A stretch of DNA of 64,000 bases from a virus (lineage: Duplodnaviria; Caudoviricetes): positions 1 to 64,000 of IMG/VR virus record IMGVR_UViG_3300028888_000115; one strand, given 5' to 3'. The position numbers and the translations under genes are program-made. Under the pieces are notes generated by a model. The model made no database searches and was not told the DNA's origin. It was given only the letters and a program-made list of their open reading frames with translations. This document shows, piece after piece, positions 24,195 through 57,758 of the stretch (positions are counted from its first letter, which is position 1; the number at the start of each line of letters is the position of its first letter).

Positions 24195-24423
24195 GTTCCA
24201 CTATGAATATCTGTGCGCTGCCGGGTGGCGTGAGGAAAAGGTCAAACAAATTGAGAGTTATGCGCAACTTGACGATCTGACGGCGGAGTGCCAGAAGAGA
24301 GGATGGACGATTCTCGAAAATCCGATTTGCCGGAGCTGCGCCAAGTTTCCGGAAGAATGTCCGGGAACGAGAAATCACATCTGGACAGGATGCGTCAACA
24401 GGAAAGAGAGGGTGAACACATGA
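24187..24423 (+). CDS. Small Cys-motif protein, paralog 2
   Basis: NPICRSCAKFPEECPGTRNHIWTGCVNR. Confidence 0.7.
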   Translation: MFEFHYEYLCAAGWREEKVKQIESYAQLDDLTAECQKRGWTILENPICRSCAKFPEECPGTRNHIWTGCVNRKERVNT

Positions 24424-25475
24424 CGGAGAAAGAAATGCGGGCAGAGATGACGGAAAAGATGCTGAGTGGGGAAGGAAGGGTCTATCTGGATGCGATCACT
24501 TGGAAGTCCGACCGTCTCCAGTGGCTTCTGAAGGAATCGGAGACGAGAAACAAGAAACTCTCCGAGGTGACCGGGATCAGGGAGAGCTCTCTGAAGATGT
24601 ACGAGTCCGGATGGGCAAAGCCGGGGCTTGGGGCGATCATCAAGCTTGCGGACTATTTCCACGTTCCGGTGGATTTCCTGCTTGGCCGGTGCTCGGAGCG
24701 GGAGGATAATGAAATCTTCGAGCACTTCGCGGACTATTTCAGGGTCCTGCGAGACGCGTCTTATGACGCATATCTGATCAACAAGTACGCCGGTGACGAC
24801 TACATCAAGAGCGATAAGGTCTTCTCATGGCCGTACAACTTGGTAGAGAACATCTACCGCGTGGAGGGAAACGAGGCGGTGGAATGCAGCCTTGACGGTC
24901 TCAAAGAAGCGATCTCTACTCTGACAGACAGAGAACAGCGCATTGTTTACATGAGGTATCGGGAGGACATGACGCTGGATGAGATTGCGGCAGAAGAACA
25001 GGTAGGCCGCGAAAGAGTCCGGCAGATCCTTGCAAAAGCGTGCAGGAAGCTACGACATCCTACCAGAATTCGCCTGATCCAGTACGGGATTGCCGGGACG
25101 GAGAAGCTTCGTGAGCTTCGGGACAGGGAGCGAGAAATCGTCGCCCGGGAGCAGGAACTTGATGACCGGGAGGCCGCGATTGCGGAGCGTGAAAAGGCGC
25201 AGGGCGTCCCAGTGCCGGAAAAAAAGGAACCGGCAAAGCCGGATGAACCGCTGAGCAACCTGCGGCACGAGATTGAGGATTACGACCTGTCGGTCCGGTC
25301 CTACAACTGCCTGAAGCGAGCCGGATGCAAAACCATGGAGGACGTTGCGAAGGTGGCGGAAAGCGGGGGCCTGCTGAGAATCCGGAACATGGGCAGACGG
25401 TCGGCAGAAGAAGTGCTTGGGGTTCTGAAGGAAAAGTGCGGGCTCGATTACTCGGCTCTCTACTTTGCAGCCTGA
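24420..25475 (+). CDS. XRE HTH - sigma70 region 4 - RNAP alpha-CTD fusion protein
   Basis: IIKLADYFHVPVDFLLGR; LTDREQRIV..MTLDEIA..VGRERVRQILAKACRKLRHP; IEDYDLSVRSYNCLKRAG..IRNMGRRSAEEV. Confidence 0.88.
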   Translation: MTEKEMRAEMTEKMLSGEGRVYLDAITWKSDRLQWLLKESETRNKKLSEVTGIRESSLKMYESGWAKPGLGAIIKLADYFHVPVDFLLGRCSEREDNEIFEHFADYFRVLRDASYDAYLINKYAGDDYIKSDKVFSWPYNLVENIYRVEGNEAVECSLDGLKEAISTLTDREQRIVYMRYREDMTLDEIAAEEQVGRERVRQILAKACRKLRHPTRIRLIQYGIAGTEKLRELRDREREIVAREQELDDREAAIAEREKAQGVPVPEKKEPAKPDEPLSNLRHEIEDYDLSVRSYNCLKRAGCKTMEDVAKVAESGGLLRIRNMGRRSAEEVLGVLKEKCGLDYSALYFAA

Positions 25476-46897: not shown

Positions 46898-47707
46898 GTG
46901 ATTGGAGCAATTATCGGAGATATCGTTGGATCTCGTTTCGAGTTCCACAACACAAATACAAAGAAGTTCGAGTTCTTCACGGAGGAATGCCGGTTTACAG
47001 ATGACACCGTGATGACTCTGGCGGTGGCTGAAAGCCTGATGCGCAGCAGAAAGAACAACTACAAGGATCTCCCGAACGTGACCGCGCGGACAATGCACGA
47101 GATCGGCAGGCGCTATCCTCGTGCCGGGTACGGCGGACGATTCGCAAGATGGATGTTCTCGGAGATCTGGATTCCGTACAATTCCTGCGGAAACGGCAGC
47201 GCGATGCGCATTTCTGCCGTTGGAGATATTGCGGAGTCCGTCGAGGAAGCCAAGAAACTGTCTGCCGCTGTGACGGAGATCACGCACAATCATCCGGAAG
47301 GAATGAAGGGCGCGGAGGCTGCGGCGGTCGCAAAGGTGATGCTCAAGACCGGCAGCACGCTGAGTCAGGTCGAGAGCTATATCAACGACCACTACTACAA
47401 GCTTGACAAAACCGTCAATGAGCTTCGAGAGGAGACGCAGGGCCAGCATGGAAAAGAAATCTGCCAGGTTACCATGCCGCAGGCTTTCACTTGCCTGTTT
47501 GAAGGAACTGACTTTGAGGATGTCATTAGAAATTGCATCTCTATTGGGGGCGACAGCGATACGATTGCTGCTATTGCCGGTGGTATTGCTGAGGCGGTTT
47601 ACCCGGTCCCGGTAGAAATGCAGAAGACGGCCAAGAAGTTCCTGACGCGGGATCTGAGGGACATCGCTGCAAGATGGGAGAGGTTCACCGGTGGTAAAGA
47701 AGGCTAA
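46898..47707 (+). CDS. ADP-ribosylglycohydrolase (DraG/ARH family)
   Basis: GAIIGDIVGS, FTDDTVMT, NSCGNGSAMR, THNHPEG, GGDSDTIAAIAG. Confidence 0.93.
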   Translation: MIGAIIGDIVGSRFEFHNTNTKKFEFFTEECRFTDDTVMTLAVAESLMRSRKNNYKDLPNVTARTMHEIGRRYPRAGYGGRFARWMFSEIWIPYNSCGNGSAMRISAVGDIAESVEEAKKLSAAVTEITHNHPEGMKGAEAAAVAKVMLKTGSTLSQVESYINDHYYKLDKTVNELREETQGQHGKEICQVTMPQAFTCLFEGTDFEDVIRNCISIGGDSDTIAAIAGGIAEAVYPVPVEMQKTAKKFLTRDLRDIAARWERFTGGKEG

Positions 47708-50235: not shown

Positions 50236-51264
50236 TTGGAGATTTGTGAGGTGATAGCTACGAAGAAAGGAAAAGAGGTCCCGGTGATCCGGGACATGAC
50301 GGAAGAGCAGACAAGGGAAATGTTCTATCGATGCGAGCCAATACTGATCGGATATGGCGGAAGCATCGCTTACGGGACCAATCTCCCGACCTCGGACGTG
50401 GATATTCGCGGGATCTACATGAATCCTCTGGATGAGTTTATCGGATGCCGTCCTGTATCGGAGCAGTACTGCCCATCGGGAACGGATATCACAATCTACA
50501 GCCTGAAGAAAATGATGCATCTGCTTTTGCAGTGCAATCCGAACGTGATTGAAATTCTCGGGCTGAGGCCGGAGCACTACCTGTACAAAACCGAAGAAGG
50601 CCAGATGTTGGTGGACAACGCGGAAATCTTTCTGTCCAAGCACGCGGCTTACACCTTCGGAAACTATGCCAAGTCGCAGTTGAACCGCCTGATGAACAAG
50701 TCCGGACGGGCAAACGATCAGGTGGTCTCGAACGAGGTCAGGTCAATTTCCAAAACGCTGAGCTCTATCCGCAAAAGGGAAGGCCTGCAAAACATCCGAA
50801 TCGACGAGGTGGACGGCGTGCCGGTTCTGACCATCAATGAGTCCATGCCGATTGACAAGTTTGCCAGCATAACCAACGAGATCAACAATGTCCACTTGGA
50901 CTACAAGTCCAGTTCCCGCAACCGCAAGGCCGTGGAGCACAGCAAACTGGCAAAGCACATGATGCATCTGCTGCGTCTGTACATGATGGGCATTGACATC
51001 TTGGAATCCCACAAGATCGTCACATATCGCGAGGCGGAGCACGACCTTCTCATGGACATCCGCAACGGGAAGTACCTGAAAGAAGACAAGACCACGCCGA
51101 CTGCTGAGTTCGACGAGCTTCTGGCGGATTACACGGCGCGGTTTGAAAAGGCGGTGGAGGAGACGACGCTTCCAAAGCGACCGGACACGGATAAGGCCAA
51201 TGAACTGATGATGCGGCTTGTCCGCATGCACTATGACGGACTGTCAGGAGGAACGACACGATGA
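50236..51264 (+). CDS. Pol-beta superfamily nucleotidyltransferase (RlaP/Nuc-transf-like)
   Basis: YGGSIAYGTNLPTSDVDIRGIY, CNPNVIEILG, KHMMHLLRLY. Confidence 0.85.
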   Translation: MEICEVIATKKGKEVPVIRDMTEEQTREMFYRCEPILIGYGGSIAYGTNLPTSDVDIRGIYMNPLDEFIGCRPVSEQYCPSGTDITIYSLKKMMHLLLQCNPNVIEILGLRPEHYLYKTEEGQMLVDNAEIFLSKHAAYTFGNYAKSQLNRLMNKSGRANDQVVSNEVRSISKTLSSIRKREGLQNIRIDEVDGVPVLTINESMPIDKFASITNEINNVHLDYKSSSRNRKAVEHSKLAKHMMHLLRLYMMGIDILESHKIVTYREAEHDLLMDIRNGKYLKEDKTTPTAEFDELLADYTARFEKAVEETTLPKRPDTDKANELMMRLVRMHYDGLSGGTTR

Positions 51265-55056: not shown

Positions 55057-55132
55057 TGCGGCGTGGTAGCAGTGGTAGCTCGCTGCCCTCATAAGGCAGA
55101 GGTCGTTGGTTCGAATCCAACCGCCGTAACCA
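55057..55132 (+). tRNA. tRNA-Met/Ile2(CAU)
   Basis: CTGCC-CTCATAA-GGCAG; lacks initiator GGG/CCC stem; CCA. Confidence 0.85.
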
Positions 55133-55134
55133 AA

Positions 55135-55275
55135 GGTCGGGTAGCTCCCGAATGATCTCAGTAGCTTGTCGGTGTGCCTGAGAGAGAATAACAAAGGCCT
55201 TTCTGAAAACTCCTTGCGCGTGAACGGTCGTGCGCAGGCTGGGGCGCGAGTGAGATAATCTAAGAAGGGAAACCG
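55135..55275 (+). ncRNA. Candidate RNA carrying module shared with 57022
   Basis: TCGGG/CCCGA hairpin, TCTCAG/CTGAGA helix, GAGAATA. Confidence 0.45.
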
Positions 55276-55283
55276 CACAATAC

Positions 55284-55360: not shown

Positions 55361-55364
55361 ATAC

Positions 55365-55660
55365 GTCTCATCTGAGCGTGGCACAACACAGCCTGTTGAC
55401 GCAAGGGCTGCACGGGCGAAATCAGATGCCGGGGCGGGGTTACATCCCACGGAGCGTCACCGTGCTCGCAGAAACGGACTCGGTATGTCCCAAACCATCG
55501 TGAGAGTATACCTTGGATGGCACAAAGCGTTTAGAAGTGCCCGATCAGCCTTCTGCGCGTATCCCGGACGGTCCGGGACCAAGGACTGTGAAGAGCGTGT
55601 TCGATTCCGCGAACTCGAAGGTTCGACTCCTGACAGTGCTGGTGCAATATCAGTCCTTTT
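55365..55660 (+). ncRNA. Candidate ~300-nt structured RNA with kissing loops
   Basis: Helices 55369-75/55422-28, 55467-73/55551-57, 55581-88/55651-58; loop-loop TGACGC/GCGTCA. Confidence 0.55.
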
Positions 55661-55666
55661 TCATAC

Positions 55667-55755
55667 GCGGAATGATGCCGTCCGGCGACGGCTGCGGCCT
55701 TGAAAACCGTGGGTAGCAGAGATGCTATGGGGGTCGGCACCTCCGTTCCGCGCCA
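55667..55755 (+). tRNA. tRNA-Ser(UGA), 8/4 fold
   Basis: 8-bp acceptor GCGGAATG/CGTTCCGC, 4-bp T stem, T loop GTCGGCA, 6-bp D stem, long V arm. Confidence 0.85.
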
Positions 55756-55851: not shown

Positions 55852-55941
55852 GCTTCGTTATGCCGGACGGCTCCGGTCCTTGCCTCGAAAGCAGAGGGTG
55901 CCCGATGAGGGCATGGGGGTCGGCACCTCAGCGAAGCGCCA
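55852..55941 (+). tRNA. tRNA-Ser(CGA), 8/4 fold
   Basis: 8-bp acceptor GCTTCGTT/AGCGAAGC, 4-bp T stem, T loop GTCGGCA, 6-bp D stem. Confidence 0.85.
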
Positions 55942-56470: not shown

Positions 56471-56547
56471 GGCTCATTAGCTCAGTTGGTTAGAGCGCAT
56501 GGCTGTTAACCATGATGTCGAAAGTTCGAGTCTTTCATGAGCCTCCA
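56471..56547 (+). tRNA. tRNA-Asn(GUU)
   Basis: CATGG-CTGTTAA-CCATG; followed by CCACCA. Confidence 0.92.
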
Positions 56548-56550
56548 CCA

Positions 56551-56840
56551 AGTGGCTGTGCTGCAGTGTTTGCATCGAAGCACCTCCTTTCGTAAATCCA
56601 CACGTCTGCTGGCCGTGCTTGCGCTACGGTTGTTGGATGAAACAAAGCAGAGCCGTGAACCGGAACAACGTGCGTACTGGGAACGCACGCCGGGAAATCG
56701 GCACAATACAGAACTGTTGGCTTTGATTCCTGACTTGTACCGAAGGCTTCGGTCCCACCGAGGCGATTGATGTAGGTAGCATCTGGGGCTCATGAAAGCC
56801 GCAGGCCCGATTAAAGCTCCGCGAGACGGGCTATCGGGCA
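56551..56840 (+). ncRNA. Candidate ~290-nt structured RNA with anti-SD segment
   Basis: GTGCT/AGCAC, CGTGCGT/ACGCACG, ACCGAA/TTCGGT, GCCCGAT/ATCGGGC; CACCTCCTTT at 56581. Confidence 0.45.
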
Positions 56841-56844
56841 ATAC

Positions 56845-56919
56845 AGGTTGGTGGTGTAATGGCAACATGCCGGTCTCCAAAACCGTGCGATCAGGGTTCG
56901 AGTCCTTGCCTTCCTGCCA
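56845..56919 (+). tRNA. tRNA-Trp(CCA)
   Basis: CTCCAAA loop; two U:U mismatches in acceptor stem; CCA. Confidence 0.85.
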
Positions 56920-56930
56920 AAAAAGAATAC

Positions 56931-57019
56931 GGAGCGTTGGCCGAGTTGGTAAGGCACCGGATTGCTAATCCGTGGTTAGGGGTAACTCTACGAATGTTCG
57001 AGTCATTCACGTTCCGCCA
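56931..57019 (+). tRNA. tRNA-Ser(GCU)
   Basis: TTGCTAA loop, long V arm, G73-CCA. Confidence 0.9.
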
Positions 57020-57021
57020 TT

Positions 57022-57486
57022 TCCGGGTAGCTGCCGGATGATGTCAGAGCAGATGCACCAGAGGCCTGACAGAGAATATGAATGGTAGACCGACCAAAGC
57101 GGGGCGGAAGCCCTGCACAAGGCCTATGGCGGTACTACAAGTGAGGGCAACGTCGAAGGAACGCGACTGATTTGTGCGGGATGGCAAACCCACAAAAAAG
57201 AACAAACACGCCCCGCTGCGGGTGACAGCACCAAAGGAAGCTGAGACGTCCGGTTTCCGGGTCTATCACTTAAAGCGGGGAATAGGCCGAATAAAACAGG
57301 AACTTGGCCGTAGGGCAGTGAAAGTGCGAATGCGTTGTAGCTGGCTGATGATGGCAGACAGAGCAAACGGCTGTAACGACAGGACGTGAGAATTAGCCGT
57401 CTACTGAAAGGGAAAGAAATCCCATCAAAGCTGTTTGCTCACAATTCTATATCGGATACCGTCATGCCGAAAGGTGTGGCGGTATC
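57022..57486 (+). ncRNA. Candidate large ornate ncRNA (~460 nt)
   Basis: Nested 9-bp helices 57083-91/57260-68, 57098-106/57209-17, 57112-20/57172-80; pseudoknot 57121-27/57281-87; 12-bp helix 57360-71/57428-39. Confidence 0.65.
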
Positions 57487-57509
57487 TTTGCTTTGGGGAG
57501 AGAGCAGAA

Positions 57510-57758
57510 ATGAGTAAGTCGAAGGATATTCGCACGCTCTGCGCCTCCTGCAGAGCAGAATACGAGGAAGCCGGATTTGAACTGATCAAAGTCTGGGTGA
57601 AAAACAAAGAGGAATGTGACTGGTGCCGCGTGAGACTGGGGTGGACCTATGAAATACGCGGAAAGAGACAACATCTTCGTAGCTCAGATGGCAAGAGCGC
57701 TGAATACTCCCAATTCAGGGGTCGCGAGTTCAAGTCTCGCCGAAGATGGACGCGATAG
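57510..57758 (+). CDS. Small Zn-binding protein reading through a tRNA-like gene
   Basis: RTLCASC..EECDWC..WTYEI; GGGGAG RBS. Confidence 0.6.
   Translation: MSKSKDIRTLCASCRAEYEEAGFELIKVWVKNKEECDWCRVRLGWTYEIRGKRQHLRSSDGKSAEYSQFRGREFKSRRRWTR
57673..57748 (+). tRNA. Deviant tRNA-Gly-like gene (9-nt anticodon loop, no CCA)
   Basis: ATCTTCG/CGAAGAT, GCTC/GAGC D stem, CTGAA-TACTCCCAA-TTCAG, GCGAG-TTCAAGT-CTCGC. Confidence 0.65.

Follow-up and report, generated by a model that had tools for sequence, protein, structure and literature searches.

A modular structured RNA, new to Rfam, beside the tRNA array of ruminant-gut phages

At the end of a phage array of 12 tRNA genes, we find a genuine structured non-coding RNA of about 470 nt that is new to Rfam and whose secondary structure is conserved among its relatives. 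It occupies positions 57020-57497 on the + strand of the window, that is, of the whole 64,000-nt stretch analyzed, which comes from a 75-kb IMG/VR virus record. Phage-borne and directly adjoining tRNA-Ser, this large RNA sits in the genomic and ecological niche of ROOL and GOLLD, but its modular build is unrelated to theirs. A first-pass annotation, made from the letters alone, had proposed a large ornate RNA in the tRNA array; covariation in relatives now supports a large, structured RNA at this place, although not as one integrated giant fold: its modules follow one another in a chain, some occur more than once, and they are gained and lost between lineages.

ARAGORN places the 12 tRNA genes on the + strand between 55057 and 57749, and Rfam alone adds one Sec-like tRNA. 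Most tRNAs in the array are only 3-10 nt apart, without any such element between them, while a gap of 490 nt separates the end of tRNA-Ser(GCU) at 57019 from the ATG (57510) of a small CxxC...CxxC ORF and holds the large RNA (Table 1). At all homologous loci (labeled L below), the order tRNA-Ser then large RNA is kept, and every copy has tRNA-Ser(GCU) on its 5' side and the small ORF on its 3' side, with a length of 416-623 nt depending on the lineage. The ORF has 17 clusters of homologues and persists where the large RNA is absent (L016, L017, and L081-L083); its Shine-Dalgarno sequence sits in the loop of a small hairpin. As a separate observation, the reading frame of this ORF meets no stop codon ahead of tRNA-Gly(UCC), the tRNA gene itself supplying the last ~28 codons, and this arrangement is kept in relatives even with tRNA-Val instead (L016, L017, and L081); cleavage of the tRNA would therefore leave an mRNA without a stop codon.

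To assemble relatives, we combined the contigs of the 17 small-ORF clusters with one metagenome pattern scan, which returned 60 loci, five of them with the large RNA (four distinct sequences, L054 being the same as L041) and the remainder chance matches. In all, 18 distinct homologues from about nine lineages were obtained, every one on a ruminant-gut phage contig (sheep or cattle gut or rumen assemblies); the evidence base is thus one phage clade, and statistical power is modest. DNA runs from at least eight studies contain more than half of the sampled words of the stretch. Two pattern scans of IMG/VR gave only two near-identical relatives, and blastn of the large RNA against 50,697 GenBank phages gave no match. 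When 185,579 species-representative genomes were scanned by pattern, 61 loci came up, some of them in Faecousia and Ruminococcaceae MAGs, but none matched the covariance model of the 3' half, so that no host or prophage copy was found; Bacillota as the host phylum had been an assumption. Since related phages lack the large RNA (L016, L017, and L081), it is dispensable.

We then examined whether pairing is conserved among these homologues. Three covariance models (R1, R2, and R3) were built from hand-checked seeds, and all loci were realigned to each. In these alignments, which are fitted to the models and in two cases (A5 and A7) take in paralogous copies, compensatory changes exceeded both the shuffled and the slid controls in the 3' half, the 5' part, and the central part, and the observed count was reached by 0 of 500 shuffles for each. 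The predicted fold of the window's own copy has a minimum free energy of -172.6 kcal/mol on the + strand (z = -4.35), and none of 100 shuffles was equally stable, compared with z = -2.0 for the - strand of the same region; G.U pairs fix the strand of the RNA as +. No ORF is common to the lineages, since those of the region vary in strand, frame, and length, in agreement with the earlier remark that no credible ORF exists here. Together, these results show that the large RNA is a real structured non-coding RNA with a conserved secondary structure.

Table 1. Features of the large RNA and its surroundings (positions in the window; compensatory counts are given with those of the shuffled and slid controls where available)
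Feature	Position	Strand	Description
tRNA-Ser(GCU)	56931..57019	+	ARAGORN and Rfam tRNA; encoded CCA end immediately precedes the large RNA
5' part	57020-57152		Model R2, alignment A5 (with paralogous copies); 95.8% of cells paired; compensatory 19/24, shuffled 8.0 ± 1.5, slid 0-6
Central part	57118-57291		Model R3, alignment A7 (with paralogous copies); 87.4% of cells paired; compensatory 22/29, shuffled 13.0 ± 1.9, slid 4-10
3' half	57300-57453		Model R1, alignment A2; 92.7% of cells paired; compensatory 14/37, shuffled 4.8 ± 1.7, slid 2-7
H1	57022..57038	+	5-bp hairpin, 7-nt loop GUAGCUG; stem compensatory at 4/5 pairs
H2	57040..57073	+	Hairpin 57042-57047/57066-57071; 100% paired; compensatory at 6/8 pairs
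GA opposite GA	57040-57041, 57072-57073	+	Flanks H2
H3 domain	57085..57138	+	11-bp closing helix 57085-57096/57127-57138; compensatory at 8/11 pairs
GNRA hairpin	57099-57116		Enclosed by H3; loop GGAA
Pseudoknot	57121-57127/57282-57288		GGCCUAU/AUAGGCC; 5' strand enclosed by H3
H4 and H5 (second unit)	57152..57196	+	H4 57152-57167, UGAU, H5 57171-57196, then conserved A-rich AAAGAACAAACACG
Pc	57211..57288	+	57211-57217/57274-57280; encloses variable arm H6; followed by pseudoknot strand AUAGGCC
Linker	57289..57306	+	Single-stranded; ~125-nt insertion between 57296 and 57297 in about half of relatives
Domain D	57307..57355	+	Irregular hairpin; GCCG-(G/U)A-GG 57307-57314; bulged strand CU-GAN-GA-UGGC 57345-57355
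X module	57361..57440	+	Three-way junction; P1 57361-57372/57429-57440 (GAGCAAACGGCU with AGCUGUUUGCUC), P2 57380-57386/57398-57406, P3 57410-57413/57420-57423
Intrinsic terminator	57454..57497	+	Hairpin 57454-57487, 15 bp, GAAA loop, U-rich tail UCUUUGCUUUG
Shine-Dalgarno hairpin	57489-57509		Shine-Dalgarno of the small ORF in the loop
Small CxxC...CxxC ORF	57510..57758	+	Frame extends into tRNA-Gly(UCC) 57672-57749
Paralogous ~150-nt unit	55133..55283	+	tRNA-Met/tRNA-Asp spacer; hairpin, AUGAUC, hairpin, AGAGAAUAACAAAGG, closing stem, GUGAGAUAAUCUAAG

Individual helices bear out the statistics. The H4 stem reads GUCG/CGAC, GCCAG/CUGGC, CCGGU/ACCGG, GUCUGG/CCAGAC, or GCCCGG/CCGGGC by lineage, so that its sequence changes while pairing stays constant; H5 is 99% paired, and the pairs of Pc take the types CG, GC, UA, and UG. 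In the X module, compensatory pairs number 6/12 in P1, 4/7 in P2, and 1/4 in P3. Three domains have a closing stem (H3, Pc, and P1 of the X module), of which only X is resolved as a multistem, three-way junction, and there is a single pseudoknot. A further candidate pairing, AAGUGAG/CUCACUU, was rejected, as it is not kept in the L006 group.

Several of these features had been read from the window beforehand and lie where they were placed, give or take 1-2 nt. The 12-bp helix said to close a 3' domain is P1. The pseudoknot, whose 3' strand had been put at 57281, is also found in L011 and L018, where GGCCCU/AGGGCU gives two compensatory pairs, read directly; its support comes from three lineage groups only, and pairing is unclear in L080, L012, L084, and L085. 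The GNRA-capped hairpin holds as well, with the loop GAGA in L003 and L056, and is specific to the window's lineage. Conversely, the three nested 9-bp long-range helices did not survive the comparison: the complementarity is present in this window (GCGGGGCG 57099-57106 with CGCCCCGC 57209-57216; CCUGCACAA 57112-57120 with UUGUGCGGG 57172-57180), but pairing is not kept in relatives, the L006 group lacking the 5' strands and L056 breaking the second helix, and the 3' strands pair instead in Pc and H5 in all lineages. The final GAAA hairpin exists, with 15 pairs rather than the 14 first counted, but it is a terminator and lies outside the ornate fold.

Domain D also contains a stem CAGU/GCUG, a hairpin (57324-57335), and a conserved loop GAAAG; its helices 1-3 are 90-99% paired, with compensatory changes in L084 (CUGU/GCAG) and L080 (GCC/GGC). 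Compared with the kink-turn motif (C stem, 3-nt bulge, tandem G.A/A.G pairs, NC stem), it offers a C stem GG/CU, a bulge GAN, GA opposite (G/U)A, and an NC stem UGGC/GCCG. The third position of the bulge is U, G, or A, a variability expected of a kink-turn, and in L010 a G replaces the key A. Domain D may be regarded as a putative kink-turn. The GA/GA junction of H1 and H2 looks like tandem G.A of the kink-turn type, and the two repeated units match the kink-turn consensus only loosely.

The loop of H1 deserves separate attention. In every lineage, positions 2-7 read as a self-complementary core, and 25 of 27 cells pair over three "pairs", two of which are compensatory (outer CG, GC, UA, and UG; middle AU and UA; third GC). 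The core is UAGCUG in this window and the L006 group, CAGCUG in L013, UAGCUA in L080, GUGCAC in L011 and L018, CUGCAG in L084, AAGCUG in L085, and UAGAUA in L012. Since the central two bases are adjacent, they cannot pair with each other inside one hairpin, and the partner would be the loop of a second copy. The HIV-1 dimerization initiation site is likewise a hairpin loop with a 6-nt palindrome after a purine that forms a loop-loop homodimer, and its GUGCAC form has the same core as L011 and L018; the two are of unrelated origin, with a 9-nt versus a 7-nt loop, and the analogy is one of mechanism only. We also considered pairing of the H1 loop with the identical GUAGCUG of domain D, which is impossible in L011 and L018; because there is no covariation there, and because the domain D copy sits in a stem with a compensatory change of its own, it is not the partner of H1. 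The intermolecular bridges of OLE and GOLLD have been argued from the same pattern of a covarying palindrome (Kretsch et al., doi 10.1101/2024.12.08.627333). Together, these observations suggest that the H1 loop is a symmetric kissing-loop contact of a homodimer, its palindrome kept by symmetric double changes, while the palindrome could also matter for the DNA.

We next turned to the repeats within the RNA and elsewhere in the array. The large RNA contains two related units that run hairpin, UGAU, hairpin, AGAGAA, closing-stem domain. The model of the 5' unit (R2) matches 55134-55249 in the tRNA-Met/tRNA-Asp spacer at 28.6 bits and also the central unit of L011; the model of the central unit (R3) matches 55112-55280 at 29.3 bits as well as the spacer after tRNA-Thr in L015. 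Alignment shows blocks common to the units and the spacer, for example CUGAAAACU and GUGAGAUAAUCUAAG. These matches, with the alignment, indicate that a ~150-nt unit occurs twice in the large RNA and a third time on its own elsewhere in the array. The linker insertion is a second, diverged X module, which gives two X copies in relatives of the L003 type, whereas L015 has an X module alone between tRNA-Ser and the terminator. L085 lacks domain D, and L084 has a different 3' hairpin.

Other spacers of these arrays hold small structured RNAs of known families, drum (RF02958) and DUF3800-VIII (RF03075). Both occur in the L015 array (drum, 66 bits, before tRNA-Thr; DUF3800-VIII, 40.4 bits, above its threshold; L015 3402-3468 and 2309-2415), and the window has a near-hit to DUF3800-VIII of 36.7 bits, against a gathering score of 40.2, at 56724-56792 in the tRNA-Asn/tRNA-Trp spacer. 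They differ from the large RNA in having other folds and a much smaller size, and models R1-R3 give no match to them; these phages yielded no gene for a DUF3800 protein. Separately, the ~300-nt spacer at 55361-55665 after tRNA-Asp has T-arm-like GGTTCGA hairpins and is covered by RNA-library contigs from four runs (four studies), with no match to Rfam or to R1-R3. It is followed at 55666-55752 by the selenocysteine-type tRNA, which reaches 49 bits against a gathering score of 47 in Rfam and is not reported by ARAGORN; a similar element seems present at ~55852-55941.

Comparison with Rfam 15 gave the large RNA no family. At gathering thresholds, the only matches in the window are tRNAs, and no tRNA model matches inside the large RNA. 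When all 4227 families were searched by cmscan at E<=10 on 4 kb and then on 506 nt, nothing in the large RNA exceeded 18 bits, and the same held for four plus four related loci; the best scores were rnk_leader (18 bits, on the terminator), Hammerhead_II (15.1), and RNaseP_arch (11.3). OLE, RNase P, tmRNA, group I and II introns, T-box, hammerhead, and the other Rfam 15 families all stayed below their gathering scores, ARAGORN found no tmRNA, and no riboswitch model, T-box included, matched the large RNA. The ROOL model (RF03087; gathering score 99.1 bits) gave no match at E<=10 to the 506 nt or to an insert-bearing form, in a search run without a ROOL-positive control, and, used by itself, it likewise found nothing at E<=10 in this record or in two relatives (146 and 83 kb), again without a positive control; the negative is in keeping with the different architecture. 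GOLLD (RF02032; 150 bits) had no match at E<=10 in the 506 nt, this record, or the two relatives. The first-pass annotation had named searches for ROOL, GOLLD, and OLE, and for homologues, among the ways to judge its candidate; the former being negative and the latter having returned covarying relatives, the absence of a family match makes the large RNA a new class.

Resemblances to known RNAs were followed individually. Blocks such as GCAACAAGAGCAAACGGC recall the CR-II of RNase P, but they are not kept in L011 and L018, and RNase P models score 11 bits. A hammerhead, prompted by CUGAUGA and GAAA, fails for want of stem I and of a conserved A15.1-U16.1 pair, and scores 15 bits. A T-box was ruled out as no model matched. 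In the literature, we found nothing on the large RNA, nor on the function of drum or DUF3800 RNAs.

The ends of the RNA can be proposed from its context. It begins 3 nt past the encoded CCA of tRNA-Ser, and since this CCA end lies directly 5', tRNA 3' processing would create the 5' end of the large RNA; on the + strand inside the array, no promoter-like site was seen. The terminator, a GC-rich hairpin followed by a U tract, is conserved in relatives, with U.G replaced by U-A and G-C. It is also found without the large RNA in L016 and L081, which marks it as a transcript end and not as part of the ornate fold; together with the small Shine-Dalgarno hairpin, it belongs to the ORF unit. Three metatranscriptome studies contributed RNA-library contigs that span 56544-57219 and 57291-57444 (X15), 56926-57103 and 57313-57616 (X16), and 57124-57277 (X19), individual runs leaving some stretches of the large RNA uncovered. 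These contigs place the large RNA in RNA libraries and no more: they give neither ends, strand, nor level, and carried-over DNA is possible.

The surrounding genes look like an auxiliary or counter-defense island, with an AAA ATPase, ParB-like proteins, and GNAT. It also includes, just upstream of the tRNA array, an ADP-ribosylglycohydrolase and an RlaP-family nucleotidyltransferase (RNA-repair systems), at 46898-47707 and 50236-51264. Farther off, at 24288-25475, a 395-aa protein joins HTH_3, sigma-70 region 4, and an RNA polymerase alpha C-terminal domain, a fusion that is unusual for a phage transcription factor. Of candidate partner proteins, TROVE/Ro60, DUF3800, L7Ae, and RtcB, no gene was found in this record or in the 146-kb and 83-kb relatives. 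Ro60 was seen in L017 alone, a relative without the large RNA, where a Ro60/TROVE protein with a vWA domain (L017 1-310) stands directly before the tRNA array.

We lean, if only slightly, to the reading that this is a phage-encoded structured RNA of an undescribed class, processed from the tRNA array, ended by a terminator, modular, dimerizing, and acting in trans during infection. The course we infer, from processing and kink-turns to dimerization and any role in infection, is as follows. Transcription of the tRNA array probably yields the large RNA as its final portion; the 5' end of the RNA would be freed by processing of tRNA-Ser(GCU), and its 3' end would be set by its own intrinsic terminator. 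It would fold into two related kink-turn-like (UGAU/GA) units linked by the pseudoknot, followed by domain D and then X, and two copies may join through the symmetric kissing loop of the 5' hairpin. In infection, it might then serve in trans as a self-assembling RNA scaffold or decoy, tied to the tRNA and counter-defense island. The main rival confines the modules to the processing or stability of the tRNA transcript: they would be cis-acting trailers or spacers by which tRNA processing is guided or protected, 3' exonucleases are blocked, RNase P/Z/E is positioned, and the folding of neighboring tRNAs is insulated, the released RNA having no job. That the basic unit always lies 2-4 nt past a CCA (tRNA-Ser and tRNA-Met here; tRNA-Thr in L013 and L015), that modules come and go among phages, and that other spacers carry drum and DUF3800-VIII all speak for it, and the gain and loss of modules is as compatible with independent small RNAs as with a single integrated machine. 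However, a processing signal needs far less than 470 nt that combine a three-way junction, a pseudoknot, a kink-turn consensus, and a loop with a covarying palindrome, and most tRNAs of the array manage with a few nucleotides between them; we consider this cis-acting role unlikely.

It strikes us as quite improbable that the RNA is a long leader, acting as a riboswitch or as an attenuator that senses a protein or a tRNA, with its terminator gating read-through into the zinc-ribbon ORF, tRNA-Gly, and the downstream ParB-like genes. The strong terminator does lie 22 nt 5' of the ORF start with no promoter-like site between them, the Shine-Dalgarno sequence is in a conserved small hairpin, and kink-turns are common in T-box and SAM-I leaders. 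Yet terminator, Shine-Dalgarno hairpin, and ORF occur together without the large RNA in L016 and L081, and with X only in L015; whole domains are inserted or lost beside the supposed expression platform, no upstream stretch is complementary by eye to either terminator strand, and T-box and riboswitch models are silent. It is very improbable that the RNA is a far-diverged ROOL or GOLLD missed by the Rfam models, for even relaxed filters at E<=10 on the 506 nt, and the models used alone, gave no match (without a ROOL-positive control), and tandem kink-turn-like units with a three-way junction are unlike the six junctions and three pseudoknots of ROOL; this notwithstanding the agreement in rumen habitat, phage carrier, tRNA-array neighborhood, and size range, and the few strictly conserved bases of ROOL (PMC5737381). 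Scarcely credible is a spacer without function, for example one of decayed tRNA genes, whose apparent structure would stem from chance and shared ancestry: the narrow distribution and the relatives without the RNA would suit it, but compensatory changes rise above both controls in all three parts, helix sequences are wholly different between lineages with pairing kept, and no tRNA model matches within.

ROOL, first found in cow rumen, occurs in phages and prophages, frequently next to tRNA clusters, and is several hundred nt long with junctions, pseudoknots, and kissing-loop assembly (PMC5737381; doi 10.1101/2024.12.08.627333). Rumen habitat, phage carrier, and tRNA neighborhood are common to both, whereas the large RNA has repeated kink-turn-like units, one pseudoknot, and variable modules, and is known so far from one phage clade. 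With GOLLD, it shares a phage or prophage setting near tRNAs, a conserved and a variable part, a covarying palindromic loop (a kissing loop in GOLLD, a putative one here), and a terminal position next to tRNAs; GOLLD, however, is often >800 nt, has a universally conserved 3' domain, and forms a 14-mer cage. OLE is likewise large, with a functional kink-turn, and dimerizes partly through a covarying palindromic symmetric kissing loop (PMC9723947), but it is a host gene of extremophilic Bacillota that acts with Oap proteins at the membrane, and the large RNA has no Rfam match.

Bacteria and phages have so far yielded only a few large, elaborately folded RNAs whose function is unknown; ROOL and GOLLD, both of which adjoin phage tRNA clusters, were recently shown to form RNA-only cages, and the large RNA carries the same signature of intermolecular pairing. 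That the habitat and genomic niche of ROOL harbor another RNA, unrelated to it, suggests selection for such RNAs in this niche. It is also a smaller, modular test object: the ~150-nt unit and the stand-alone X are separable for study, the unit in the tRNA-Met/tRNA-Asp spacer could be studied as a minimal form of the family, and natural variants with or without each module are ready-made deletion mutants. Tentatively, and with more doubt than belief, we raise the idea that it is a third, unrelated self-assembling phage RNA class beside ROOL and GOLLD, in which tandem-duplicated ~150-nt kink-turn units would form loop-mediated dimers or larger assemblies and act with the phage tRNAs against host defenses that target tRNA or translation. 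If this were true, phages would have arrived repeatedly, and independently, at the strategy of placing RNA-only quaternary assemblies next to tRNA arrays.
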